Shown here piece after piece: positions 7,549 through 26,804 of a DNA stretch of 32,000 nt; within the stretch, counting starts at the first letter, position 1, and every line of letters begins with the position of its first letter. A model generated the notes under the pieces. The model had not been told where the DNA came from. It was given only the letters and a program-made list of their open reading frames with translations, and searched no databases. This DNA comes from Synechococcus elongatus PCC 6301. GTDB lineage: Bacteria > Cyanobacteriota > Cyanobacteriia > Synechococcales > Synechococcaceae. The position numbers and the translations under genes are program-made. The stretch spans positions 30,001-62,000 of the forward strand of contig NC_006576.1 in the NCBI RefSeq assembly GCF_000010065.1, written 5' to 3'.

Positions 7549-9594
7549 ATGACCATTACTTTCGGCCGAGAGATTTGTAGTGATCTCGCGATCGCCCAGC
7601 AGCGCGAATGGCTGGTCACTAACGGAATTGGTGGTTACGCCTCAGGCACGGTCGCTGGACTTCCGACTCGCAGCTACCACGGACTTTTAGTAGCAGCGCT
7701 GAAGCCACCCCTCGATCGCACCTTGCTAGTCACACATCTCGATGAGCAAGTCGACTATGGCAAGCTATCGCTGCCTTTGAGTACGACCCGCTGGGTTGAC
7801 GGCACCGTTGCTCCTCGAGGCTACGAGCAGATTGAGCAGTTTGGGTTGGAGGGCACCATACCGGTCTGGCAATTTGCGATCGCCGATGCCCGACTAGAAA
7901 AGCGAATCTGGATGGAGCCGGGCGCCAACACCACCCTTATTTCCTATCGTTTTGAACGGGGCAGTCTGCCGCTGCAGCTTACCGTTAAGGGGCTGGTCAA
8001 CTATCGCGGTTACCACAGTCGCACCCAGGCGGGCGATTGGCGCATGGATGTGCAGCCCGTCGATCGCGGCTTGAAGGTAACAGCTTTTCCAGAAGCGACT
8101 CCTTTCTATTTGTTCGCAACTTGGGGCAAGTGGGCGATCGCCCCTGAGTGGTATCGCGACTTTGAGCTGGCAGTTGAGGCCGAACGAGGACTGGACGATC
8201 GCGATGACAACCTGAGGGTGGGTTCGCTGACGGTGACGCTCAATCCCGGTGAGACGCTTTGCCTTATTGCCAGTACTGAAGCCAGCCCGGATCTGGATGC
8301 GGCGGCTTCCCTCCAGCGCTACCAAGATCGGACGCAAGCCAAGCTCCAACAATGGCAGGCAGCGAATCCGACCTTGGCGGATCAAGCCCCTGATTGGGTG
8401 CGGCAACTGGTGTTGGCGGCAGATCAGTTCATTGTCGATCGTCCGCTGCCCAATCATCCCCAGGGCAAAAGCATTCTCGCGGGTTACCACTGGTTCGCCG
8501 ACTGGGGTCGAGACACGATGATCAGCCTACCGGGGTTGACGCTAGCGACAGGTTGGCCCGATCTCGCCCGAGAAATTCTGCTCACGTTCGCCCAGTTTGT
8601 TAGTCAGGGAATGTTGCCTAATCGCTTCCCTGACGATGGCAATCCCCTCACCGATGCCGACTACAACACGGTGGATGCCACCCTTTGGTATGTGGAAGCT
8701 GTCCGTCAATACCTCGATTGCAGTGGGGATAAGACGCTACTGGCCGAGATTTTTCCAGTGCTGCAGAACATCATTGGCTGGCATCAACGGGGCACCCGCT
8801 TCAATATTCACCTTGATCCTCAAGATGGTCTGCTGACTGCGGGAGCAGCAGGTGTGCAGCTCACTTGGATGGATGCCAAAGTTGGCGACTGGGTAGTGAC
8901 GCCTCGCATTGGTAAGCCAGTCGAGATCAATGCCCTTTGGTATGCCGCCCTGCGATCGCTGGCTCACTTTGCTCGGTGTTTAGGGCAGCCCAGCACTGAC
9001 TACGACCAACTGGCAGAAGCGACCTTGCAGGGATTTCAGCGGTTTTGGCAAGCAGATCGGGGCTACTGTTTCGATGTACTCGACAGCCCCACGGGGTCAG
9101 ATGCTAGCCTACGCCCCAATCAACTGCTAGCAATTTCCCTCGGTTGCGATCGCGATCAGCCGGCACTACTCACGCCTGACCAGCAACAACAGGTGGTGAC
9201 CCTCTGCGGTCAGCAGTTATTAACGTCTTTTGGACTGCGGAGTCTCGATCCTCGTCATCCGCAATATCAGGGGCACTACGGCGGCGACCAAACCCAGCGC
9301 GATGCGGCTTATCACCAAGGCACCGTTTGGGCTCGGCTCTTGGGCTCTTTTGCGATCGCCCACTATGCCGCCTTTGGCGATCGCGCCTTGGCAGCTCAGG
9401 TTTTGCAACCGATCGCCCATCACTTGCAAACTGCAGGGCTGGGAACGATTAGCGAAATCTTTGATGGCGATGCACCCTTTCTCCCGCGCGGCTGCATTGC
9501 CCAAGCTTGGTCCGTGGGTGAAATTCTGCGCGCTTGGACAGTGATTCACCAGACGGCAGTGTCCCCTGATCCTGCTGCGATCGCTCTGACCTGA
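7549..9594 (+). CDS. Archaeal-type glycogen debranching enzyme (GH133 amylo-alpha-1,6-glucosidase domain)
   Basis: 681-aa ORF beginning 12 nt after the GH63 stop codon. N-terminal GDE_N-like block EWLVTNGIGGYASGTVAGLPTRSYHGLLVAAL. C-terminal (alpha/alpha)6 region with GYHWFADWGRDTMISLPGL and QAWSVGEILRAW. Confidence 0.85.
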   Translation: MTITFGREICSDLAIAQQREWLVTNGIGGYASGTVAGLPTRSYHGLLVAALKPPLDRTLLVTHLDEQVDYGKLSLPLSTTRWVDGTVAPRGYEQIEQFGLEGTIPVWQFAIADARLEKRIWMEPGANTTLISYRFERGSLPLQLTVKGLVNYRGYHSRTQAGDWRMDVQPVDRGLKVTAFPEATPFYLFATWGKWAIAPEWYRDFELAVEAERGLDDRDDNLRVGSLTVTLNPGETLCLIASTEASPDLDAAASLQRYQDRTQAKLQQWQAANPTLADQAPDWVRQLVLAADQFIVDRPLPNHPQGKSILAGYHWFADWGRDTMISLPGLTLATGWPDLAREILLTFAQFVSQGMLPNRFPDDGNPLTDADYNTVDATLWYVEAVRQYLDCSGDKTLLAEIFPVLQNIIGWHQRGTRFNIHLDPQDGLLTAGAAGVQLTWMDAKVGDWVVTPRIGKPVEINALWYAALRSLAHFARCLGQPSTDYDQLAEATLQGFQRFWQADRGYCFDVLDSPTGSDASLRPNQLLAISLGCDRDQPALLTPDQQQQVVTLCGQQLLTSFGLRSLDPRHPQYQGHYGGDQTQRDAAYHQGTVWARLLGSFAIAHYAAFGDRALAAQVLQPIAHHLQTAGLGTISEIFDGDAPFLPRGCIAQAWSVGEILRAWTVIHQTAVSPDPAAIALT

Positions 9595-9636: not shown

Positions 9637-11028
9637 ATGACCCCAGACTCCCACAGCTTTGTCTCCTCGCTCCTCGCATCACGGATGCGATTCCGACGCT
9701 TTCTCGAAGCCTCTGAGGGACTTAATCTGGTGCTGCTTTGGGCCGCGATCGCGGGGTTGATGGTCGGGCTGGTGGGTGGCGCTTTTCGTTGGCTGACCTC
9801 GGCTACTCTGAACGGGCGTGTCCGCTGGCTAGCGTCTTTGCCTCAAGGGCCGGAATTAGTTGCCTCAGTCCTGCTGTCTAGCGGGATGGTAGCACTGGGG
9901 TTTTACCTGATGCGCCGCTTCGCTCCCGATACGTCTGGTAGCGGCATTCCCCAAATTGAAGGCTGGCTAGCCGGTTTTTTCTCACTGTTCTGGTGGCGGG
10001 TGTTGCCGGTGAAATTTCTCGCTGGCATTTTGACCCTCGGCAGTGGCATGGTCATGGGTCGCGAAGGCCCGACGATTCAAATGGGCGGTGCGATCGGTCA
10101 GATGGTCTCGGACTGGTTTCGAGCTTCAACCGAGCAAGCGCGGGTGCTGGTGGCAGCGAGTGCTGGGGCTGGTTTAGCAACTGCTTTCAATGCACCCTTA
10201 GCCGGAATCGTCTTCGTTTTTGAAGAAATGCGGCCCACCTTTCAGAATCGCCTGAGAGCTTATCAGGCCGTGACGATCGCCTGCATTACCGCGACGATTG
10301 GTCTCCAGCTCCTACTCGGCAAAGGACCCACGATTGAGCTGGCGCAGTTTGGGGCGCCGCCCCTCTCCTCTCTCTGGGTGTTTGTGCTGCTGGGGCTGGC
10401 TTGTGGAGCGATCGGCTATAGCTTTAACCGGCTGCTGGTCTGGAGTCTCAACTGCTTTGCCACCCTCCATGGACTGCCCCTGCGGCTAACAGGGCTGGGC
10501 GTTGGTGGTTTCATTGGCTTGGTCAGCTGGCTCTATCCTCCCGCAACCAACAGTGGCGAAAATCTGGTGCTTTGGGCGTTTGATACGGTCGAGCCGATCC
10601 ACACATTGCTGTTACTGTGCAGCCTGCGATTTGCCCTGACGCTCCTCTGTTATGGCTCCGGCGCACCGGGCGGGATCTTTGCTCCACTGCTCTCGATCGC
10701 TACTTTGTTTTCTCTAGGATTGGGGCAATTAACGATCGACTGGTTGCCAGGATTATTGCTGCCGCCGGAGGTACTTGCGATCGCGGGGATGGGAGCATTC
10801 GTTGCGGCCACCATTCAGTCACCGCTGACCGCCATTTTGTTAACGACTGAAATTACCAGTAACTATCAACTCATCCTGCCGATCATGGTGAGTTGCTCGG
10901 CAGCAACCCTGATCGCTCATGGACTGGGCAGCCGCCCCATCTATACGGTCTTGCTCGAACGGCAACTGGCTAAGGCAGGGATTGCTGTGCCAACACCGAA
11001 GGCTCAGAATGGGGCGATCGATCTTTAG
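9637..11028 (+). CDS. Canonical CLC-type Cl-/H+ antiporter (ClC-ec1-like, no cytoplasmic domain)
   Basis: 463-aa ORF. All CLC signature segments are intact: GSGIPQIEG, GREGPTIQMGG, FVFEEMRP, GGIFAP, SNYQLILP. Confidence 0.9.
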   Translation: MTPDSHSFVSSLLASRMRFRRFLEASEGLNLVLLWAAIAGLMVGLVGGAFRWLTSATLNGRVRWLASLPQGPELVASVLLSSGMVALGFYLMRRFAPDTSGSGIPQIEGWLAGFFSLFWWRVLPVKFLAGILTLGSGMVMGREGPTIQMGGAIGQMVSDWFRASTEQARVLVAASAGAGLATAFNAPLAGIVFVFEEMRPTFQNRLRAYQAVTIACITATIGLQLLLGKGPTIELAQFGAPPLSSLWVFVLLGLACGAIGYSFNRLLVWSLNCFATLHGLPLRLTGLGVGGFIGLVSWLYPPATNSGENLVLWAFDTVEPIHTLLLLCSLRFALTLLCYGSGAPGGIFAPLLSIATLFSLGLGQLTIDWLPGLLLPPEVLAIAGMGAFVAATIQSPLTAILLTTEITSNYQLILPIMVSCSAATLIAHGLGSRPIYTVLLERQLAKAGIAVPTPKAQNGAIDL

Positions 11029-14375: not shown

Positions 14376-14927
14376 ATGGCAAAACTCACTTCTATCTCCC
14401 ACCCACTCAGAGTTGATTTTCTTCCTCCTAGTAGTCACGGTCTTGCGGGTCAGTTGGGGATGACCCTCGCTCCAGGACGTAAAAGTCAGGGTCTCATCGG
14501 TCAGTGGGATCGTGATTTGATCACGGATCTCGAACGTCTCAAGCATCACTATCTCTGCGATCGCCTCGTTTCCCTCATTGAAGACCACGAACTTGTAGCG
14601 ATAGGAATTCCTACACTCTACGAAGCAGTCCGGCAGCAGGGGATTGCGCTCTCACGTCTAGCCATTGTCGATGGCGGAACACCGACTGACTTAGAGACTT
14701 ATCAATTACTCATTACAGATTTAATTCAAGCGCTATCTGCGAGGGAAACGATTGTCATTCACTGTCATGCAGGTCTGGGGCGTACGGGTATGTTGGCTGC
14801 ATCTATTCTAGTCACCAAAGGACAACCCCCTGAAGCCGCGATCGCAGCCGTACGAGCACTTCGTCCACGAGCGATCGAAACTCATGCTCAAGAACAAATC
14901 ATTTACAAAATTGCAGCGAAAATCTAG
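14376..14927 (+). CDS. Cys-based protein phosphatase of the dual-specificity/PTP superfamily
   Basis: 183-aa ORF with the CX5R P-loop HCHAGLGRTG in the expected position near the C-terminal third. The 76-aa ORF overlapping on the minus strand has no support. Confidence 0.85.
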   Translation: MAKLTSISHPLRVDFLPPSSHGLAGQLGMTLAPGRKSQGLIGQWDRDLITDLERLKHHYLCDRLVSLIEDHELVAIGIPTLYEAVRQQGIALSRLAIVDGGTPTDLETYQLLITDLIQALSARETIVIHCHAGLGRTGMLAASILVTKGQPPEAAIAAVRALRPRAIETHAQEQIIYKIAAKI

Positions 14928-21170: not shown

Positions 21171-21983
21171 TCAAGTTGAGGTTCCCGTTGCGAGGCGATC
21201 GCGAAATTGGCGAAGTTGTTTCAAGAGGCGATCGCGATCAAAGCTCCGGGGATCAATCCGCTCCCCCGAGAGATCGACCTCCTTATGGGTAGTGATGCGC
21301 TCTGCCGGAACCTCAGTTTGAGCAATCAACCAAGCCAAACTCCGGTACCGCGCGACGGTGTAGCCACTGTGCGGGGGGTCAGAATCCTGCCCATCTAGCG
21401 GCGTCTCAAGGGAGATGTGATAGGAAAAACTATTGACCGAAGGTGGGTGCTCGGGATCGCCGTAGAGCGTCTCCAGTCCTTCGGCGGTGTCAAAGCCCGA
21501 CTCTGCCGCACCATAGGCTTTGGCTTGAGCAGGCACGATCGAGATCACAGCACCATTGCGGCGAATGATGGCGTGGTAGCTAGCAGCTTCAGAATCCTCA
21601 AGGTCGCCGCGCGGGAACCAATCGATCGCTGAATCGGCTGAGTAGAACGTTTCATGCAGCACAATCAAGGGTTCGTTGTCGACGAGGCTACCATCGGCGT
21701 TGAAGCGCAGTCGCTCACCGTAATTATTGGGATGGGCCCAGGCAATCTCAGAGGCTGGTGTTTGGTCCGCTAGTTCGGGTGCAGGACGGCGAAAAAACTG
21801 TTGAAAGGCGATTGCAGTAGGGAGGGGCACCAGCGATTGCGACTGTTGTCGGTCGTGTAGAAGAACCCCCGTTAGCAGTACCCCTAGGAAGAGCAGCAAA
21901 CAGGCCAAACGCTGCCAGAATCGGCGCCGCAACAATGCTGCAACAAGCCTGGACACAGGCGATCGCTCCTCAAGGATCGGCAC
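21171..21983 (-). CDS. N-acetylmuramoyl-L-alanine amidase (Amidase_2/AmpD-PGRP fold) with an N-terminal membrane anchor
   Basis: 270 aa from a GTG start. TM helix LACLLLFLGVLLTGVLL. Amidase_2-like blocks LIVLHET, SYHAIIRRNG, AKAYGAAESGF...SYHISLE and TTHKEVD...RIDPRSFD. Confidence 0.8.
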   Translation of the reverse strand: MPILEERSPVSRLVAALLRRRFWQRLACLLLFLGVLLTGVLLHDRQQSQSLVPLPTAIAFQQFFRRPAPELADQTPASEIAWAHPNNYGERLRFNADGSLVDNEPLIVLHETFYSADSAIDWFPRGDLEDSEAASYHAIIRRNGAVISIVPAQAKAYGAAESGFDTAEGLETLYGDPEHPPSVNSFSYHISLETPLDGQDSDPPHSGYTVARYRSLAWLIAQTEVPAERITTHKEVDLSGERIDPRSFDRDRLLKQLRQFRDRLATGTST

Positions 21984-22328
21984 GACTCTGCTAGATCATC
22001 TGACGATCTGTCTGTCAAATCCAGCACAAGCCTAGCAACTCCAGAGTCTTGTCTCGGAGCAAGCTCTATCGCGATTCTGAATCGCCGTGATGGGGCGATC
22101 GCCACTTGGGCCAACGGGTTCCCATCTCCGTGGCTGCCGACCAGCAGAGATAGAGTATGAGCACTACAATTCCTGCCAAAAAAGGCAGTAAATCATCGGG
22201 CATTGCGGCACCTCCTCATGTGATGCAAACGGCAAACTTTAGATTAGCGATCTCGCTGCAATCGCAGCTGCCCACGCTGGCCAAGCGATCGTGTCACGAT
22301 CAAAGCGATTGCTTCCTGTCGTTGCGCC

Positions 22329-23639
22329 ATGTCTTCTGCTACGCGCCGCCGCCTCGCGATCTGGTACACCCTGCTGACTGCCATCCTCTTGCTGGCCTTT
22401 GCAGTGAGTGCTTATGTCTATGCGCGCGGCACGCTGATCGATCGTGTCGACGACACCCTCAGCCACGTTGTGGAAGTGATCGAGCGATCGCTGGTGATAG
22501 AACCAACGGGCCCCAGCCGCACCCCCCAAGTCAACCTCGAGATCAGTTTTCGCAGCCGCGAAGCCAGTGCAGAAGCCGATCGCATTGACTTGGAGTGGTT
22601 TAGCCCCAGTGGTGACTTACTCTGGAGCACCCTCGATGCACCACTGGCCGTGCCCCTATCCCTGAGCCGACGAGCTGAAACCGTCAGTTTCCCGAGCGCC
22701 TACGATGAGCCGGCCTTGGTACGCCAGCTAACTGAGCCTGTCATTTTCGATCGCCAATTGCTGGGCTACCTGCGGGTTAGTCATCCCTGGTTTGAAGTCA
22801 GTGCGCCCATCCAGCAACTCCTGATCGATCTCAGCTTTGGCAGTGCTCTGATGCTGGTTGCGGTGGCGGCAACCGGCTGGTTTTTATCAGGTTTGGCCAT
22901 GCGCCCAGTCTACGAGTCTTACGGGCAGCTCAAGCAATTTACGGCGGATGCTTCCCATGAACTGCGCAATCCGATCGCGACGATTCAGGCCAATGTGCAA
23001 GCCGCCCTGACTGAGCCCCAAGGCTTGGCCCCCGAACAACAGCAAGTTTTGCAGGTCATTGAACGCTTGACCCGTCGCCTTGGCAGCCTTGTTGATGATC
23101 TGCTGTTCTTGGCCCGCCAAGATAGCGGTCTACAGCAACCGGCTCCAATCCAAAACCTCGATTTAGATGCCCTCCTACTGGATGTGGTCGAGGAGCAAAG
23201 TCTCTATGCCCAAGAGCAAAACCTGAGCTTAGATTTACAGCTGCCTGATGCGGATCAGGCCCTGCAGCTGACTGGAGTGCGGGAACAACTGGCTCGCCTG
23301 TTCACCAATTTGATCGCCAACGCTCTGCAGTACACACCAGCATCGGGTCAGGTGACGGTTCAGGTGCAGCCACTTAATCAAGGACTGCAAGTGGAAGTTC
23401 GCGACAGCGGCATTGGCATCAGTCCCGAGACGTTGCCTCACGTCTTTGAGCGGTTTTATCGTGCCGATCCAGCCCGGCGACCGCGCGATCGCGGCGGCTC
23501 TGGCTTAGGACTGGCGATCGCTCAAGCAATTGTGGAGCGTCACCACGGCAAAATCCACCTGCGCAGTCAAGTCGGGCAAGGAACAACCGCGGTCGTTTGG
23601 CTACCATTCAATCAGCCGGATGCAGCGCGTTCCCTTTAA
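22329..23639 (+). CDS. Sensor histidine kinase with two TM helices and a periplasmic loop; no cognate response regulator in the window
   Basis: 436-aa ORF. TM1 is LAIWYTLLTAILLLAFAVSAYVYA and TM2 is SALMLVAVAATGWFLSGLAM. H-box FTADASHELRNP. N box (NLIANALQYT), G1 (VRDSGIGI) and G2 (GGSGLGLAIA) are present. Confidence 0.9.
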   Translation: MSSATRRRLAIWYTLLTAILLLAFAVSAYVYARGTLIDRVDDTLSHVVEVIERSLVIEPTGPSRTPQVNLEISFRSREASAEADRIDLEWFSPSGDLLWSTLDAPLAVPLSLSRRAETVSFPSAYDEPALVRQLTEPVIFDRQLLGYLRVSHPWFEVSAPIQQLLIDLSFGSALMLVAVAATGWFLSGLAMRPVYESYGQLKQFTADASHELRNPIATIQANVQAALTEPQGLAPEQQQVLQVIERLTRRLGSLVDDLLFLARQDSGLQQPAPIQNLDLDALLLDVVEEQSLYAQEQNLSLDLQLPDADQALQLTGVREQLARLFTNLIANALQYTPASGQVTVQVQPLNQGLQVEVRDSGIGISPETLPHVFERFYRADPARRPRDRGGSGLGLAIAQAIVERHHGKIHLRSQVGQGTTAVVWLPFNQPDAARSL

Positions 23640-23701: not shown

Positions 23702-24142
23702 CTAGTCCGTTAAATCAAGGGTGAATGACTTGGCGTTTTTGGTGTCAATTTCTGAGAAACCTTGCGTGAGGTAGCCCCGACGTTCGCAGTTTTGGTCCCC
23801 TAAAATTGAGAATTCTTCGGGGTCACGAATGCAGAAATTGTAGTCGCCTTCCCAGAGCAGAGAAGCATCTGTATTTTCAGCATAGTAGTAGTAATAGCGA
23901 AGCTTTAAGCGGCCGCCAACCACCGTTTCGCAGCCCCGTGGGGAAATGCTATACCACCCCCGCGATCGCCAGGATTCTCCCTCCTTATAGCCGACGGCGA
24001 GATTGACGGTCTTGCGTGTTTTGTTGCAGATCACCAGTTCGGCACTGGCTGGCTCTGCAAAACTGCTGAACCCTAACCACGCCACCGTTGAGACTGCTGC
24101 GATCGAGCAAACCTGGCGAACACCCGAGAATAACTGCTTCAT
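23702..24142 (-). CDS. DUF1036-family secreted or membrane-associated protein
   Basis: 146-aa ORF. Signal-peptide-like N-terminus ending ...FAEPASA. Core ELVICNKTRKTVNLAVGYKEGESWRSRGWYSISPRGCETVV...RYYYYYAE matches my memory of DUF1036. Confidence 0.8.
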   Translation of the reverse strand: MKQLFSGVRQVCSIAAVSTVAWLGFSSFAEPASAELVICNKTRKTVNLAVGYKEGESWRSRGWYSISPRGCETVVGGRLKLRYYYYYAENTDASLLWEGDYNFCIRDPEEFSILGDQNCERRGYLTQGFSEIDTKNAKSFTLDLTD

Positions 24143-24224: not shown

Positions 24225-26804
24225 TTAACGTCTCTGAATGATTACGGTTTGCGGTGCCTGTGCTAACAGATCTTTCCAGAGGGTTGTGGTGGGCAGCTGT
24301 TCCAAGGTCATCGATAGCATCACCGCTTCGATCCCTCGACTTTGCATCACATCCAATAGCACTGCTGTCACCGATCGCGCACAGATCAAGTCTGCTTGGA
24401 TGGGTTGCCGCAGGCGGTTCTCCAGTCGTCGCTGCAGCTGCTGGAGACGGTTGGCTGAAACGGTTTGTCGAGGGAGGTCGATCTGACAGAGGGAGATATC
24501 TGGATCGGTAATCAACTGCAGGATTTGTTCCAAGGGCTCGGCCAAACCTGTCTGGGGCACCTGGGCGCTGAGGGGAATCAGCCAATGGCGTAGCGGCAGA
24601 GTCGGGCGATCGCCCTGCAGGAGTGGCGCCTTGGCCAGGAATGCAGCCCCGGGTTTGACCAACAGCACCCGGCAGGGAGCCTGCTGCAAAATCTGATCAA
24701 TCCCTTCGCGGAACAGCCGTTGGGCTAAGGAAGCCCCGCCACCCCAGCCCATCACGAGATCGTTGATGTGGCGATCGCTAATCGTTTCTAGAATCGCAGC
24801 AGAAAGATCGTGACAAACCCGGACTTGCGTATGAACCGGAATCTGCCAGCGTCGGCCCAACCGCTCGGCCTGCCGCAACATTCGCCGTGCTCCAAGAGTT
24901 GAAACTGCTGTTTGAGAGGGATCGGCTTCGCGAGAGACAGGAATCAGGTGCAGACATTCCAGCTCGTAGTTCCGCAAACTGGCGAGCCCTGCCGCCAACT
25001 GCAACAGAGATTGAGCTGTGCGCGGATTGGCCAGTAGCACTAGCAGACGTCCTTGGCCGGTAGCGGGCGATCGCGTTTCGTAGGCGACGTAGGAGGGGGC
25101 GATCGGCGTCGCAGCAATATCTTGACCGCTTAGGAGTTCCGATTCGGCCCGAATGATGTCGGCTCGTGTGATGATTCCGACCAGCTTGCGGCCATCGACC
25201 ACGGGCAACCGGCTGATTTGGAAGCGGTTCAGCACGTAAAGAACGTGGGCCAGAGTGTCTTGGGGGGCAACTGTCAGCGGGTGAGGCGTCATGATTTCGC
25301 TGAGCCGCACGGACTCGCCTTTGCCTTTGAGGGTTTGTTCATCCAGATCGGAGCTGGTAACAATGCCGACTAGAGCACCTTTTTGAGTAACAGGAAAACC
25401 TCGGTGGTGAGTGCGGTTGAATTGCTGGATTACTTCAGTCAGGGGTAGGCTGGCTTCCAGAGTTTCCACAGGACTAGCCATCACCTGGGCAGCAGTCAGA
25501 CCCAAGCTGCTGTTGAGAGTTGGCAAGGCGCCAACCACTGCGGCTGCTTTGCTGGGCGATCGCGCCAAGCTGGCAATTCCATAGGCGGTAATCGAGGCCA
25601 CCATCAGCGGTAACACTGCGTTGAAATCGCGGGTCATCTCGAACACAATCACGATCGCCGTGATCGGCCCTTGGGTGACGGCGCTAAACATCGCGCCCAT
25701 ACCCGCCAAGGCATAGGTTGCCGGAGCATCGATCCGCAGCGGAATCCCAACCTGCAAAAAGATCGCCTGAATGGAAAGCACCACGCCCAGACCCAAACTG
25801 GAACCGAGCACCAGCGCTGGCGCAAAAATCCCGCCAGAAGCCCCTGATCCAGCAGCCACCAGCGTCAGACCAAAGTTGATCGCCAACATCAGCAACGCGA
25901 TCGAGCCACTGTCCGGGATGGTCACCCTAAAGGGGTTACTCAGGCCTTGCCGCAGCGCAGCAGGGAGCAACAGCAGTAGTAAGGCCGAGATCCCACTGGC
26001 GATCGCAACCCGCCAAGGCAGCCCCTTGAGCGGTAAGCGTTCATAACAGCGTTGACTGAACGCCAAGCCGCGATTGAACAAAATGCCTAGGCCCCCTGCA
26101 AACAGTCCTAAAAGTAGGACAACGGGCAGCTCAGGCACGGTCAGGGCGGCTGGAGCAGCAACAATTTCAGAGCTGAAACTCAGGCTTTGACTGCCGAGAA
26201 TTCCCGAAACAACTGCCCCAATAAAGGCTGCGAGGACTGCTGTCCCAAGGGTGAAGCTAGAGACATCATGGAGCAGTTGCTCCAGCACTAGCATCACACC
26301 GGCTAGCGGTGCATTAAAGCCAGCCGCGAGGCCAGCGGCAGCCCCGGAAGCAATCAACTGTCGTCGGTAGTCTGGCGAGGTGGGGAACCACTGGCTCATC
26401 TGACCCGCGAGGGAAGCGCCCACTTGCACGGTTGGGCCTTGCCGCCTTAGGGGCAGCCCTGAACCAACCACCAGCATCGTGCTGGCAATTTTGACGATCG
26501 CAACCCGTAGGTTCAAGGCGATGCGGCTGCCTGACAGTGCGGCTTGCACTTGGCTGATGCCGCTGCCCTCGGCTTCGGGGGCAAACCGTTGCACCAGCCA
26601 ACCGGCGATCGCGCCCAGAATCGGTGGCAAAAGGAGCTGCAGGCCAAGTGGCAGTCCCGGGCGATCGCGCAGATCTTGAACACCCGTTGCACCCAGTTTG
26701 AGCAGGAAGGCACTCGCCCCTGAAACCAGCCCGATTGCGCAAGCTTCCAGCACAGCCCACTGCTGCGCTTTAGCAAACCGTGGCGGAAAACGCAGACGAA
26801 ACAC
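24225..26804 (-). CDS. Atypical CLC-family anion channel/transporter fused to a CBS pair and two USP-like domains
   Basis: 859 aa from a GTG start (CAC at 26802-26804). The CLC TM domain spans residues 1 to about 415 (GSGISQ, RRQGPTVQ, GGIFAP). The CBS pair spans about 437-555 (…HRGFPVTQKGALVGIVTSSDL… and …ISRLPVVDGRKLVGIITRADI…). Two Rossmann-like USP-type repeats span about 585-859. Confidence 0.9.
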   Translation of the reverse strand: MFRLRFPPRFAKAQQWAVLEACAIGLVSGASAFLLKLGATGVQDLRDRPGLPLGLQLLLPPILGAIAGWLVQRFAPEAEGSGISQVQAALSGSRIALNLRVAIVKIASTMLVVGSGLPLRRQGPTVQVGASLAGQMSQWFPTSPDYRRQLIASGAAAGLAAGFNAPLAGVMLVLEQLLHDVSSFTLGTAVLAAFIGAVVSGILGSQSLSFSSEIVAAPAALTVPELPVVLLLGLFAGGLGILFNRGLAFSQRCYERLPLKGLPWRVAIASGISALLLLLLPAALRQGLSNPFRVTIPDSGSIALLMLAINFGLTLVAAGSGASGGIFAPALVLGSSLGLGVVLSIQAIFLQVGIPLRIDAPATYALAGMGAMFSAVTQGPITAIVIVFEMTRDFNAVLPLMVASITAYGIASLARSPSKAAAVVGALPTLNSSLGLTAAQVMASPVETLEASLPLTEVIQQFNRTHHRGFPVTQKGALVGIVTSSDLDEQTLKGKGESVRLSEIMTPHPLTVAPQDTLAHVLYVLNRFQISRLPVVDGRKLVGIITRADIIRAESELLSGQDIAATPIAPSYVAYETRSPATGQGRLLVLLANPRTAQSLLQLAAGLASLRNYELECLHLIPVSREADPSQTAVSTLGARRMLRQAERLGRRWQIPVHTQVRVCHDLSAAILETISDRHINDLVMGWGGGASLAQRLFREGIDQILQQAPCRVLLVKPGAAFLAKAPLLQGDRPTLPLRHWLIPLSAQVPQTGLAEPLEQILQLITDPDISLCQIDLPRQTVSANRLQQLQRRLENRLRQPIQADLICARSVTAVLLDVMQSRGIEAVMLSMTLEQLPTTTLWKDLLAQAPQTVIIQRR

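Follow-up and report, generated by a model that had tools for sequence, protein, structure and literature searches.

INTRODUCTION

The closest described relatives of the protein analyzed here are ClC-ec1 (E. coli ClcA) and Synechocystis Sll0855 (PDB 3nd0), both of which are 2Cl–/1H+ exchangers. To our knowledge, every prokaryotic ClC characterized so far is an exchanger, and neutralization of the gating glutamate (Glu_ex, E148 in ClC-ec1) abolishes coupling in every exchanger tested besides ClC-ec1 as well. In ClC-ec1 itself, neutralizing Glu_ex abolishes H+ coupling, and the channel-like double mutant E148A/Y445S, which has lost both its outer (Glu_ex) and inner (Tyr445, the central tyrosine or Tyr_cen) gate side chains, runs at 14,400 per s, compared with 1,440 per s for the WT protein and 260 per s for E148A (PMC4769167). 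These gate mutants nevertheless keep an extracellular bottleneck (PMC4769167). A second engineered protein, the QQQ mutant (E113Q/E148Q/E203Q, PDB 6v2j), adopts an outward-facing open state, and neither ClC-ec1 nor cmCLC needs the internal glutamate (Glu_in, E203) to pump H+ (PMC7253180).

How channels arose from exchangers in the ClC family is an old question that has mostly been approached through engineered ClC-ec1 mutants of this kind and a few animal channels. CLC-K naturally lacks the gating glutamate, having Val at that position, and like other eukaryotic CBS-containing CLCs it carries a C-terminal CBS pair behind the membrane domain. For the plant proteins AtCLCe and AtCLCf, which form a 'prokaryote-like' CLC branch, cyanobacterial homologues have been reported and none characterized; in AtCLCe, Glu_in is replaced by Ser and the central Tyr by Thr (PMC4746265). 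Among the cyanobacterial proteins, Synechocystis Sll1864 is cited as an uncharacterized candidate for chloride export, and salt shock brings about a transient increase in its mRNA (PMC8670252).

RESULTS

Architecture and fold of the 859-residue protein

The gene lies at positions 24225–26804 of the window, the 32,000-nucleotide stretch of Synechococcus elongatus PCC 6301 DNA that we analyzed, and is read from the reverse strand, as are all of its features described below. The ORF begins with GTG and ends with TAA (24225–24227), and its 859-residue product is identical to BAD78235.1 of the same strain, which is annotated 'chloride channel protein'. The ORF list, this exact match and Pfam together define a ClC–CBS–CBS–USP–USP architecture. 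The neighboring genes encode a PmbA/TldD-like protein, a Tab2-like protein, an S1-domain protein, a DUF1036 protein and a histidine kinase, and these neighbors offer no functional clue.

The ClC transmembrane domain, delimited by Pfam, Foldseek and dN/dS, comprises residues 1–413 (25566–26804) with helices up to helix Q. Pfam Voltage_CLC (PF00654) matches residues 64–411 at 5e-81 (273 bits; cut-off, 24.8), covering profile positions 2–345 of 346. The AF2 model of the protein has a pLDDT of 81.8 and superimposes in Foldseek on ClC-ec1 and StClC with target-normalized TM-scores of 0.80–0.83 and an rmsd of ∼3 Å, which indicates a ClC fold. The protein shares the membrane fold of ClC-ec1 and Sll0855, along with the GSGI and GGIFAP motifs, at ∼27–30% identity over 365–370 residues. 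Foldseek matches to CLC-7, CLC-2, CLC-3 and CLC-K cover both the transmembrane and CBS regions, at an identity of only ∼20%.

The window contains a second ClC gene (9637–11028, forward strand, 463 aa), which served as an internal reference. A preliminary description of the sequence had identified this paralogue as canonical, and we re-found its ClC-ec1 signatures in the alignment: GSGIPQIEG, GREGP, FEEMR, GGIFAP and RPIY are retained, so that the central Ser (Ser_cen), both glutamates and the Tyr are all present. With a canonical exchanger encoded in the same window, the cell should still have exchange activity.

Glutamine replaces three pore glutamates

Residue equivalences were assigned using phmmer against ClC-ec1, StClC and Sll0855, a MAFFT alignment and a family profile compared with the PDB; unless stated otherwise, homologue counts refer to the 120 close homologues in the alignment. 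As the preliminary description had proposed from the same two codons, all three alignments, including the profile-HMM comparison with the PDB, place Gln122 (CAA, 26439–26441) at Glu_ex and Gln176 (CAA, 26277–26279, confirmed by a codon check) at Glu_in. By phmmer and MAFFT, Gln87 (26544–26546) is the equivalent of E113, the hydrogen-bond partner of Glu_in. The alignments thus put Gln at each of Glu_ex, Glu_in and E113, matching the three changes made in engineered QQQ, and the best matches of the family profile in the PDB are the E148Q and QQQ mutant chains. The three positions vary differently among the homologues. Gln is found at Glu_ex in 116 of 120. Glu_in is Glu in 117 of 120, and Gln at this position is restricted to the S. 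elongatus clade and P0134. The E113 column is Lys in 115 of 120 orthologues, and no members but those of the S. elongatus clade have Gln there.

It is highly improbable that the protein remains a coupled Cl–/H+ exchanger by way of another proton route. Such a route might be imagined because ClC-ec1 and cmCLC still pump H+ without Glu_in (PMC7253180) and because Glu175, the equivalent of E202, is kept. However, the residue whose neutralization abolishes coupling in ClC-ec1 (PMC4769167) is Gln in this protein, and the G-R-Q-G-P loop contains no alternative carboxylate.

The anion site itself is retained. The protein has GGIFAP and reads GSGIS where GSGIP would be expected, keeping Ser81 (26562–26564) at Ser_cen (S107 in ClC-ec1; MAFFT), and both GSGI(S/P) and GG(I/L)FAP are kept family-wide. 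These motifs bear on whether the gate changes mark a shift in substrate (nitrate, nitrite, bicarbonate or some other small anion in place of chloride) and not the conversion of an exchanger into a channel. Plant CLCs have had their selectivity retuned by filter residues, and the Pro-to-Ser change in GSGIS could be read in that light. In a sister clade, a branch in the Pleurocapsales, Ser_cen is occupied by Gly and Glu_ex by Arg, suggesting that filter chemistry is evolving. In addition, the Synechocystis gene sll1864, a candidate relative annotated as a potential chloride channel, is overlapped in antisense by nirP1, which encodes the small protein controlling nitrite excretion (PMC10907346). 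Against such a shift, Ser_cen, which is tied to the preference for Cl– over NO3–, is present in 119 of 120 homologues, and for fluoride in particular the CLC-F motifs are unlike those found here and the match to 6d0j/6d0k is weak (1e-14). We therefore judge a change of substrate to be an unlikely explanation.

The central tyrosine is lost together with helix R

The preliminary description had equated Y445 with a Phe codon at 25623–25625. The codon position is correct, but both MAFFT and the profile comparison with the PDB pair this residue, Phe394 (TTC), with Y419 in the helix Q region, and it is Phe in 120 of 120 homologues. Equivalence with Y445 is ruled out, in three alignments, by the pairing of TRDFNAVLP with MTDNYQLILP of ClC-ec1. 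Tyr445 instead belongs to GKPLY445SAIL, where helix R begins. At this point the orthologues read GS[IL]Y..LL and the 859-residue protein reads RSPSKAAAVV, an ungapped alignment placing Ala420 at Tyr_cen.

Alignment, AF2 and dN/dS all mark residues 414–436 (25497–25565) as a remnant of helix R that lacks the central Tyr. In the AF2 model, residues 416–432 are coil with a pLDDT of <50 and no helix R is formed; an orthologue control modeled with the identical 63-sequence set has helix R at residues 427–434 with Tyr428. Across residues 414–436, dN/dS is locally raised to 0.2–0.28. Judged from the alignment and the models, the true Tyr_cen is absent as well, together with the helix that carries it.

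A CBS–USP–USP cytoplasmic tail

The CBS pair that had been described behind the ClC domain is borne out (residues ∼437–558, 25131–25496; Pfam, motifs, AF2 and dN/dS). Pfam CBS (PF00571) matches two stretches at 8.6e-26, the AF2 model shows β-α-β-β-α units, and both ribose-type GhhT/SxxD motifs are present (GIVTSSD at 480 and GIITRAD at 543) and conserved in the family. USP domain 1 (residues ∼572–717, 24654–25091; Pfam, AF2 and dN/dS) is matched by Pfam Usp (PF00582; first copy) over residues 586–717 at 4.9e-11 (43.8 bits; cut-off, 24) and has a β-α-β Rossmann-like fold in the AF2 model. Its family motif MGWxG appears as MGWGGG, with a spacing unlike that of the canonical UspFG-type ATP motif, G-2x-G-9x-G-(S/T).

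Pfam is silent on residues 722–859 of this protein (no match at E<1), and the assignment of a second USP-fold domain (residues ∼740–859, 24228–24587) consequently comes from Pfam Usp matches in the orthologue tails (2e-10 to 4e-6, 28–42 bits), the alignment and the AF2 model, in which five strands and four helices reproduce the β-α topology. This domain is degenerate in S. elongatus: the glycine-rich loops found in 112 of 117 orthologues are changed from GGPN to AQVP and from GASREG to SMTLEQ. The tandem USP-type domains of the preliminary description are thus present, the first by Pfam and the second by fold, but calling both of them nucleotide-binding-like overstates the case for this protein because the glycine loops of the second are gone. 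On the evidence of motifs, the CBS and USP domains may bind ligands, which for the CBS pair would be adenosyl compounds. No solved structure covering a CBS–USP–USP tail was found among the Foldseek matches.

Distribution and selection in cyanobacteria

Orthologues of ∼860–900 residues with the same Pfam architecture and 45–50% identity over their full length occur throughout the cyanobacteria, most of them with Gln at Glu_ex and annotated only as 'chloride channel protein'; Sll1864 probably belongs to this group. They differ from the S. elongatus protein in keeping Glu_in, Lys at E113, Tyr_cen, helix R and the USP2 glycine loops. Gln is found at Glu_ex in 50 of 79 species-representative genomes. 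The nearest short ClC–CBS relatives all have Glu at this position. Glu is also kept by four of the close homologues and by a basal group that shares the architecture, so the architecture by itself does not demand uncoupling. A crude NJ tree, a distance tree without support values that serves here just to suggest in which order the changes occurred, shows the Q state as derived, with the S. elongatus clade nested within it. By this distribution of residues the three losses have different histories: Gln at Glu_ex goes back to the ancestor of a large clade of cyanobacteria, and the S. elongatus lineage alone has Gln at Glu_in and lacks Tyr_cen.

The preliminary description had allowed that orthologues retaining Glu, Glu and Tyr would make this a strain-specific degenerate copy. 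For the gate, the survey shows otherwise, Gln at Glu_ex and the CBS–USP tail being widespread. Glu_in and Tyr_cen are indeed retained in distant orthologues, their loss being specific to the S. elongatus lineage, but a dN/dS of 0.03–0.08 (∼0.05) within the lineage speaks against degeneration. By domain, dN/dS is 0.028–0.11 for the transmembrane region, 0.055 for the CBS pair, 0.03 for USP1 and 0.046 for USP2, and such low values imply purifying selection on a copy that is not decaying. A pseudogene or strain-specific degenerate copy is ruled out by an ORF that is intact in four lineage members, by conserved synteny and by overall dN/dS values of 0.045–0.08; upstream synteny is retained in members L001 and L004 and absent in L003.

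The same data bear on whether the ClC domain still transports at all. It could instead have become a membrane anchor for a sensor or regulator whose CBS–USP tail acts on other partners, which would fit the loss of four functionally important positions along with helix R, the remodeling that the tail is also undergoing in P0134 (L004), a more distant lineage member, and the failure of any curated NCBIfam transporter model to reach its cut-off with this protein (the ClcA equivalog scores 239.5 against 350), which leaves it without a curated family name. However, no other part of the gene is under constraint as strong as the transmembrane domain (dN/dS of 0.028 against the 92% relative), and the family-wide retention of GSGI(S/P) and GG(I/L)FAP would be difficult to account for in a protein that neither bound nor passed anions. 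A domain that has given up transport accordingly seems improbable to us.

An arginine private to PCC 6301 in the pore loop

Alignments and strain comparison show that Arg120 (AGG, 26445–26447), at the position of G146 in the G-R-E-G-P motif of ClC-ec1, is private to PCC 6301. This column is Gly in 120 of 120 homologues, in PCC 7942 and in every other S. elongatus sequence read, as well as in most representatives at 50% identity. A single base, at 26447, distinguishes the codon from that of the PCC 7942-type genome (GGG/GGA to AGG). The motif RRQGPTVQ given in the preliminary description is therefore right about Gln at the gate, but its first Arg belongs to PCC 6301 only, the others reading G-R-Q-G-P. 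A surplus of strain differences in the gene was ruled out, with 2 in 2.6 kb compared with 30 in 17.8 kb (∼1.7 per kb) for the region.

Replacement of an invariant glycine by Arg may impair the PCC 6301 allele. It is conceivable, although we lean against it, that this copy is a laboratory-strain loss-of-function variant in a family that may otherwise function: one base replaces a Gly of the G-R-x-G-P pore loop that none of the 120 homologues has changed, and G230 of human ClC-1, the equivalent glycine, is a site of myotonia mutation with altered pore properties. On the other hand, the ORF is intact apart from G120R, strain differences are not in excess, and Arg120 may be a sequencing error in the 2007 genome. 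Moreover, the argument bears on the allele and says nothing about what the gene family is.

DISCUSSION

On balance, and with moderate confidence, we favor the view that this is the gene of a dimeric anion transporter of the ClC fold which no longer exchanges Cl– for H+ and provides a passive, H+-uncoupled path for Cl– (or a small anion) regulated by its tail. The uncoupled, channel-like ClC of the preliminary description is in one respect predicted more strongly than before, with Gln at all of the QQQ positions and helix R gone, even though the original assignment of Y445 was wrong. The sequence retains the anion scaffold (GSGI with Ser_cen, and GGIFAP), Gln takes the place of Glu_ex, which serves as outer gate and proton shuttle, and likewise of Glu_in and its partner E113, and the inner-gate Tyr is deleted along with helix R. 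Purifying selection on the gene is strong. Because loss of Glu_ex uncouples ClC-ec1 and loss of both gates speeds its Cl– flux, channel-like behavior is expected of the S. elongatus protein. By analogy with those mutants it would be a natural 'both gates removed' design with ∼10-fold faster, channel-like diffusion of Cl–, and the Q-type orthologues that keep Tyr would be slow uncoupled uniporters or gated channels.

The parallels are not exact. Relative to ClC-ec1 and Sll0855, the S. elongatus protein has Gln at three Glu sites, lacks Tyr_cen and helix R, and adds a ∼430-residue CBS2–USP2 cytoplasmic tail. Unlike the engineered mutants it is natural and under purifying selection; compared with E148A/Y445S(A), which has likewise lost its outer and inner gate side chains, it has lost the Tyr with a whole helix, not by a point change, and its gate residue is Gln, not Ala. 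Gln is also larger than the Ala, Ser and Val of designed and natural ClC channels, and flux through E148Q ClC-ec1 is slow, which counts against a channel. Furthermore, loss of helix R could equally cripple the pore or alter its coupling to the tail. CLC-K shares the naturally absent gating glutamate and the CBS pair, but the S. elongatus protein is prokaryotic, has Gln rather than Val, lacks helix R and its Tyr, and carries two extra USP-fold domains. AtCLCe resembles it in lacking Glu_in and the central Tyr and, unlike it, keeps the gating glutamate; we know of no USP domains in AtCLCe.

With the intramembrane gates gone, control would pass to the cytoplasmic tail. Helix R joins the tail directly to the pore in the orthologues, so the tail may also supply an inner gate. 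The CBS pair with its ribose-type motifs and the two USP folds could sense adenine nucleotides or a related metabolite, USP2 having perhaps a structural role only in S. elongatus. Cl– conductance might in this way be tied to energy or stress state, for example in adjusting membrane potential or osmotic balance after salt shock or light–dark shifts.

A literature search found no study of the 859-residue S. elongatus ClC or its clade, in line with the earlier remark that no characterized member with this combination was known to its author, and the function of the clade is accordingly a prediction. Among the papers listed for the pore motifs GRQGP and GRRGPT none concerned a CLC, the matches shown being to the collagen-type string GKQGP.

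More tentatively still, prokaryotes may have here their first natural ClC channel. A large clade of cyanobacteria would have uncoupled an exchanger by a single Glu-to-Gln change at the gate and moved control to a nucleotide-sensing CBS–USP–USP tail, and the S. elongatus lineage would then have dropped the inner gate (helix R and Tyr), independently matching the laboratory 'both gates removed' design. If so, the Q-type, S. elongatus and Arg-gate/Gly-filter (Pleurocapsales) proteins would form a natural exchanger-to-channel series in genetically tractable organisms. Together with the E-type proteins that keep the Glu gate, the Q-type, the QQQ-like S. elongatus protein without Tyr and helix R, and the Arg-gate type would amount to graded versions of the key mutants, made and selected in nature. 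Since the hosts are model cyanobacteria, the genes can be knocked out, the reconstituted proteins studied by electrophysiology and the cells followed physiologically (salt shock, light–dark shifts, thylakoid or plasma-membrane potential). The ClC–CBS–USP–USP tail is a candidate means of coupling anion conductance to nucleotide or stress state, and the annotation 'chloride channel protein' covers at least three chemically distinct pore types.

A CLC protein fused to CBS and USP domains

The open reading frame at 24225-26804 (minus strand) starts with GTG and encodes 859 residues identical to BAD78235.1, annotated as 'probable chloride channel protein' in PCC 6301. Pfam recognizes Voltage_CLC over its full length (residues 64-411, 273 bits), followed by two CBS domains (as far as residue 554) and a single Usp domain (residues 586-717, 43.8 bits). 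No NCBIfam model reaches its cut-off, the ClcA equivalog scoring 239.5 vs 350. In Foldseek searches with an AlphaFold2 (AF2) model, the membrane domain superimposes on ClC-ec1 and StClC with target-normalized TM-scores of 0.80-0.83 and an rmsd of ∼3 Å, the eukaryotic CLC-7, CLC-2, CLC-3 and CLC-K structures span the TM and CBS regions, and the USP region is covered by no solved structure. Its HMM match, fold and motifs make the protein a member of the CLC superfamily; in sequence, it fails every criterion for the exchanger subclass.

The same genome encodes a canonical exchanger paralogue (9637-11028, plus strand; 463 aa). GSGIPQIEG, GREGP, FEEMR, GGIFAP and RPIY can all be read there, bearing out the preliminary description of this protein as ClC-ec1-type. 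Its gene begins 42 bp after a GDE_N/GDE_C glycogen-debranching-enzyme gene (7549-9594, plus strand) and shares its orientation; co-transcription of the pair is therefore possible. Downstream of the 859-aa ClC gene by 82 bp, and on the same strand, is a gene for a 146-aa DUF1036 protein with a signal-peptide-like N-terminus (23702-24142, minus strand); this gene order is kept in the S. elongatus genomes L001, L002 and L005-L007. In the metagenomic relative L003 (83% identical), a Crp-family regulator (cNMP_binding + HTH_Crp_2; 1843-2526) is found directly upstream of the ClC gene, where the PmbA/Tab2/S1 genes would be.

Gate and proton-pathway residues

We derived residue equivalences from three independent alignments: a phmmer search of all PDB chains, with alignments to Sll0855 (3nd0), StClC (1kpl) and the ClC-ec1 QQQ mutant E113Q/E148Q/E203Q (6v2j); a MAFFT alignment of the 859-aa protein, ClC-ec1, the paralogue and 120 homologues; and a profile of 63 family members searched against the PDB. 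All three place Gln122 (CAA, 26439-26441) at the external gating glutamate (Glu_ex, E148) and Gln176 (CAA, 26277-26279) at the internal glutamate (Glu_in, E203), as initially proposed from the sequence. They also pair Gln87, which had been missed, with E113, and the protein therefore naturally has all of the QQQ substitutions. Searched against the PDB, the family profile scores best with E148Q and QQQ mutant chains. Because Glu_ex is absent, it is unlikely that this protein is still a coupled exchanger.

The preliminary description had assigned the central tyrosine (Tyr_cen, Y445) to Phe394 (TTC, 25623-25625; TRDFNAVLP). This assignment is wrong: Phe394 pairs with ClC-ec1 Y419 (MTDNYQLILP), and its column is Phe in 120/120 homologues. 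Y445 comes 26 residues later, within GKPLY445SAIL, where helix R begins (RPIY in the paralogue). The corresponding motif, GS[IL]Y..LL, is present in 117/120 orthologues of the long protein; S. elongatus reads RSPSKAAAVV, without a Tyr, and an ungapped alignment puts Ala420 at the position. In the AF2 model of the 859-aa protein (mean pLDDT 81.8), helix Q stops at residue 413, residues 416-432 are coil with pLDDT <50 and there is no helix R, whereas a control model of the Phormidesmis orthologue P0004 made with the same 63 sequences has a helix at 427-434 that includes Tyr428 (pLDDT ∼77-84). The alignments and the comparison of models together indicate that the inner-gate Tyr is missing. The central Tyr is therefore lost, as claimed, but for a different reason: helix R itself is gone, a more drastic change than a Phe substitution.

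Ser independently replaces the central Tyr, on a Gln-gate background, in the related loci L044, L047 and L057 (Okeania, Dapis) and in L031, which suggests that the inner gate has been removed on more than one occasion within the Q-type clade (Gln at Glu_ex). The Okeania and Dapis proteins with this Ser have Asp at Glu_in.

Gate states across cyanobacteria

Homologues of full length (∼860-900 aa, 45-50% identity) that share the Pfam architecture of the 859-aa protein are spread across the cyanobacteria, in genera such as Phormidesmis, Leptolyngbya, Nostoc, Anabaena, Prochlorothrix, Microcoleus, Planktothrix, Pseudanabaena and Chamaesiphon. The combination of gate residues first described is only partly conserved among the closest 120 homologues. 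Gln at Glu_ex is the rule (116, with Glu in the other 4), but Glu_in is Glu in 117 and Gln in just 3, all from the S. elongatus clade, and Tyr_cen is likewise Tyr in 117 and absent from the same 3. The E113 position is Lys in 115. When S107/E148/E203/Y445 states were scored in 79 species-representative genomes, 50 had S/Q/E/Y, 14 had S/E/E/Y and 5 had G/R/E/Y; minor variants, such as S/Q/D/S (Okeania and Dapis), made up the remainder.

In a set of 50%-identity representatives drawn from 1.84 billion proteins, the long USP-bearing forms are mostly Q- or R-type (Arg at Glu_ex), with two E-type, and the nearest short ClC-CBS proteins (∼580 aa) all have GREGP. In a neighbor-joining tree of the membrane domain, which is crude and without support values, E-type USP-fused proteins adjoin the short ClC-CBS forms, Q-type proteins are derived, and the R-type, like the S. 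elongatus clade, falls inside the Q-type. A fourth and more distant member of the S. elongatus lineage, P0134 (L004 5001-7283, GCA_964481495.1; 54% identity), is Q/Q/no-Tyr and syntenic with the S1/Tab2/PmbA genes. It has 760 residues with a shortened, strongly diverged USP region, and Pfam finds only CLC and CBS domains.

Pleurocapsales, Spirulinaceae and their relatives contribute a sister clade that shares the ClC-CBS-USP2 architecture (L061, L068, L071, L074, L079; also L067, L075). Its proteins, P0280-P0399, have Arg at the gating-glutamate position (GRRGPTV, 119/120) and Gly at the central serine (Ser_cen, S107; GGGIP/GGGVP, 120/120), with Glu_in and Tyr_cen kept. A conserved positive charge in an anion gate is odd, and we found no description of it in the literature. 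Nostoc/Nostocales genomes (L008-L010, L014, L021, L023, L024, L026, L028, L035, L052, L076) encode long ClC-CBS-USP proteins with GREGP or GRQGP, as well as a third type, 'GSGMSEVK/GREGP', indicating several paralogous subfamilies with differing gate chemistry.

The CBS-USP tail and selection

The last 138 residues of the 859-aa protein have no Pfam match, although the aligned tails of orthologues score as Usp (28-42 bits), and in the AF2 model this second domain (USP2) has five strands and four helices that alternate as in the first (USP1). The tandem USP-like domains described previously are thus upheld as fold and homology. Nucleotide binding by USP2, on the other hand, is unlikely: the glycine-rich loops are replaced, GG[PA]N (112/117 orthologues) by SAQVP and G-A-S/T-R-E-G by SMTLEQ. 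The ribose-type CBS motifs GIVTSSD and GIITRAD and the USP1 motif MGWxG are retained.

The gene is under strong purifying selection and is not decaying. Nei-Gojobori dN/dS vs L001 (92% identical) is 0.045 for the whole gene, 0.028 for the TM domain, 0.055 for the CBS pair, 0.029 for USP1, 0.046 for USP2 and 0.28 for the helix R remnant (414-436); the whole-gene value vs L003 is 0.062. These whole-gene values rule out a strain-specific degenerate copy, the case named beforehand as refuting the proposal. A non-transporting sensor is disfavoured because the TM domain is very strongly constrained and the anion-site motifs are kept, and transport of a different anion is disfavoured by the retention of Ser_cen.

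Proposed mechanism

The protein retains the ClC fold and anion-binding motifs and has lost the outer-gate/proton-coupling carboxylate together with its inner partners; the inner-gate Tyr has gone along with helix R. ClC-ec1 with small residues at Glu_ex and Y445 is 'channel-like', with a water-filled conduit and no H+ coupling, and turns over at 14,400 per s vs 1,440 per s for WT (∼10-fold) and 260 per s for E148A alone (PMC4769167). QQQ ClC-ec1 takes an outward-facing open state, and H+ pumping does not strictly need Glu_in (PMC7253180). By analogy, the Q-type clade would be H+-uncoupled, and the S. elongatus protein may be a natural counterpart of the design in which both gates are removed, which would make it a passive anion conductance. 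Control of gating would then fall to the CBS-USP tail, or else to slower conformational transitions. In the orthologues, as in other CLCs, helix R links the tail to the pore. Adenine nucleotides are the default expected ligand for CBS pairs and USPs.

Functionally, its closest counterparts are probably the engineered QQQ and channel-like ClC-ec1 mutants; of natural proteins, it is probably nearest to CLC-K, in which the gating Glu is also missing. It differs from them in four respects: Gln at the gate, the lost helix R, its prokaryotic origin and the CBS-USP-USP tail. Databases list many proteins of this architecture, named generically as 'chloride channel protein', and our literature search found no paper on its pore chemistry or function; according to a 2016 paper, no cyanobacterial homologue of AtCLCe had been characterized (PMC4746265). 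The protein may act in Cl- and membrane-potential homeostasis, a tentative suggestion that draws on Sll1864 of Synechocystis, a putative orthologue. Sll1864 is discussed as a candidate for Cl- export, and salt shock causes a transient rise in its mRNA (PMC8670252). The 859-aa ClC is real and conserved, and on sequence grounds it points to a mechanism that should be directly testable in a model organism.

Changes private to PCC 6301

Two residues, G120R and D425G, set PCC 6301 apart from PCC 7942 and other S. elongatus sequences. Arg120 (AGG, 26445-26447, minus strand), one base different from a PCC 7942-type genome, takes the place of the first glycine in G-R-x-G-P, a position at which 120/120 homologues have Gly; D425G (25530-25532, minus strand) is in the helix R remnant. 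The RRQGPTVQ motif reported previously is therefore correct for PCC 6301, but the species at large has GRQGPTVQ. G120R may impair the PCC 6301 allele, and may reflect either loss of function in a laboratory strain or an error in sequencing; this allele may even be dead, a question separate from what the family is. There are 30 differences in the 17.8 kb between 14224 and 32000 relative to the PCC 7942-type chromosome L006 (CP085785.1), so the ClC gene is not enriched in strain differences. Ten of the 30 cluster at 21349-22462, in an Amidase_2 gene and the start of a histidine-kinase gene, and some assemblies give the amidase ORF 261 aa, others 270 aa.
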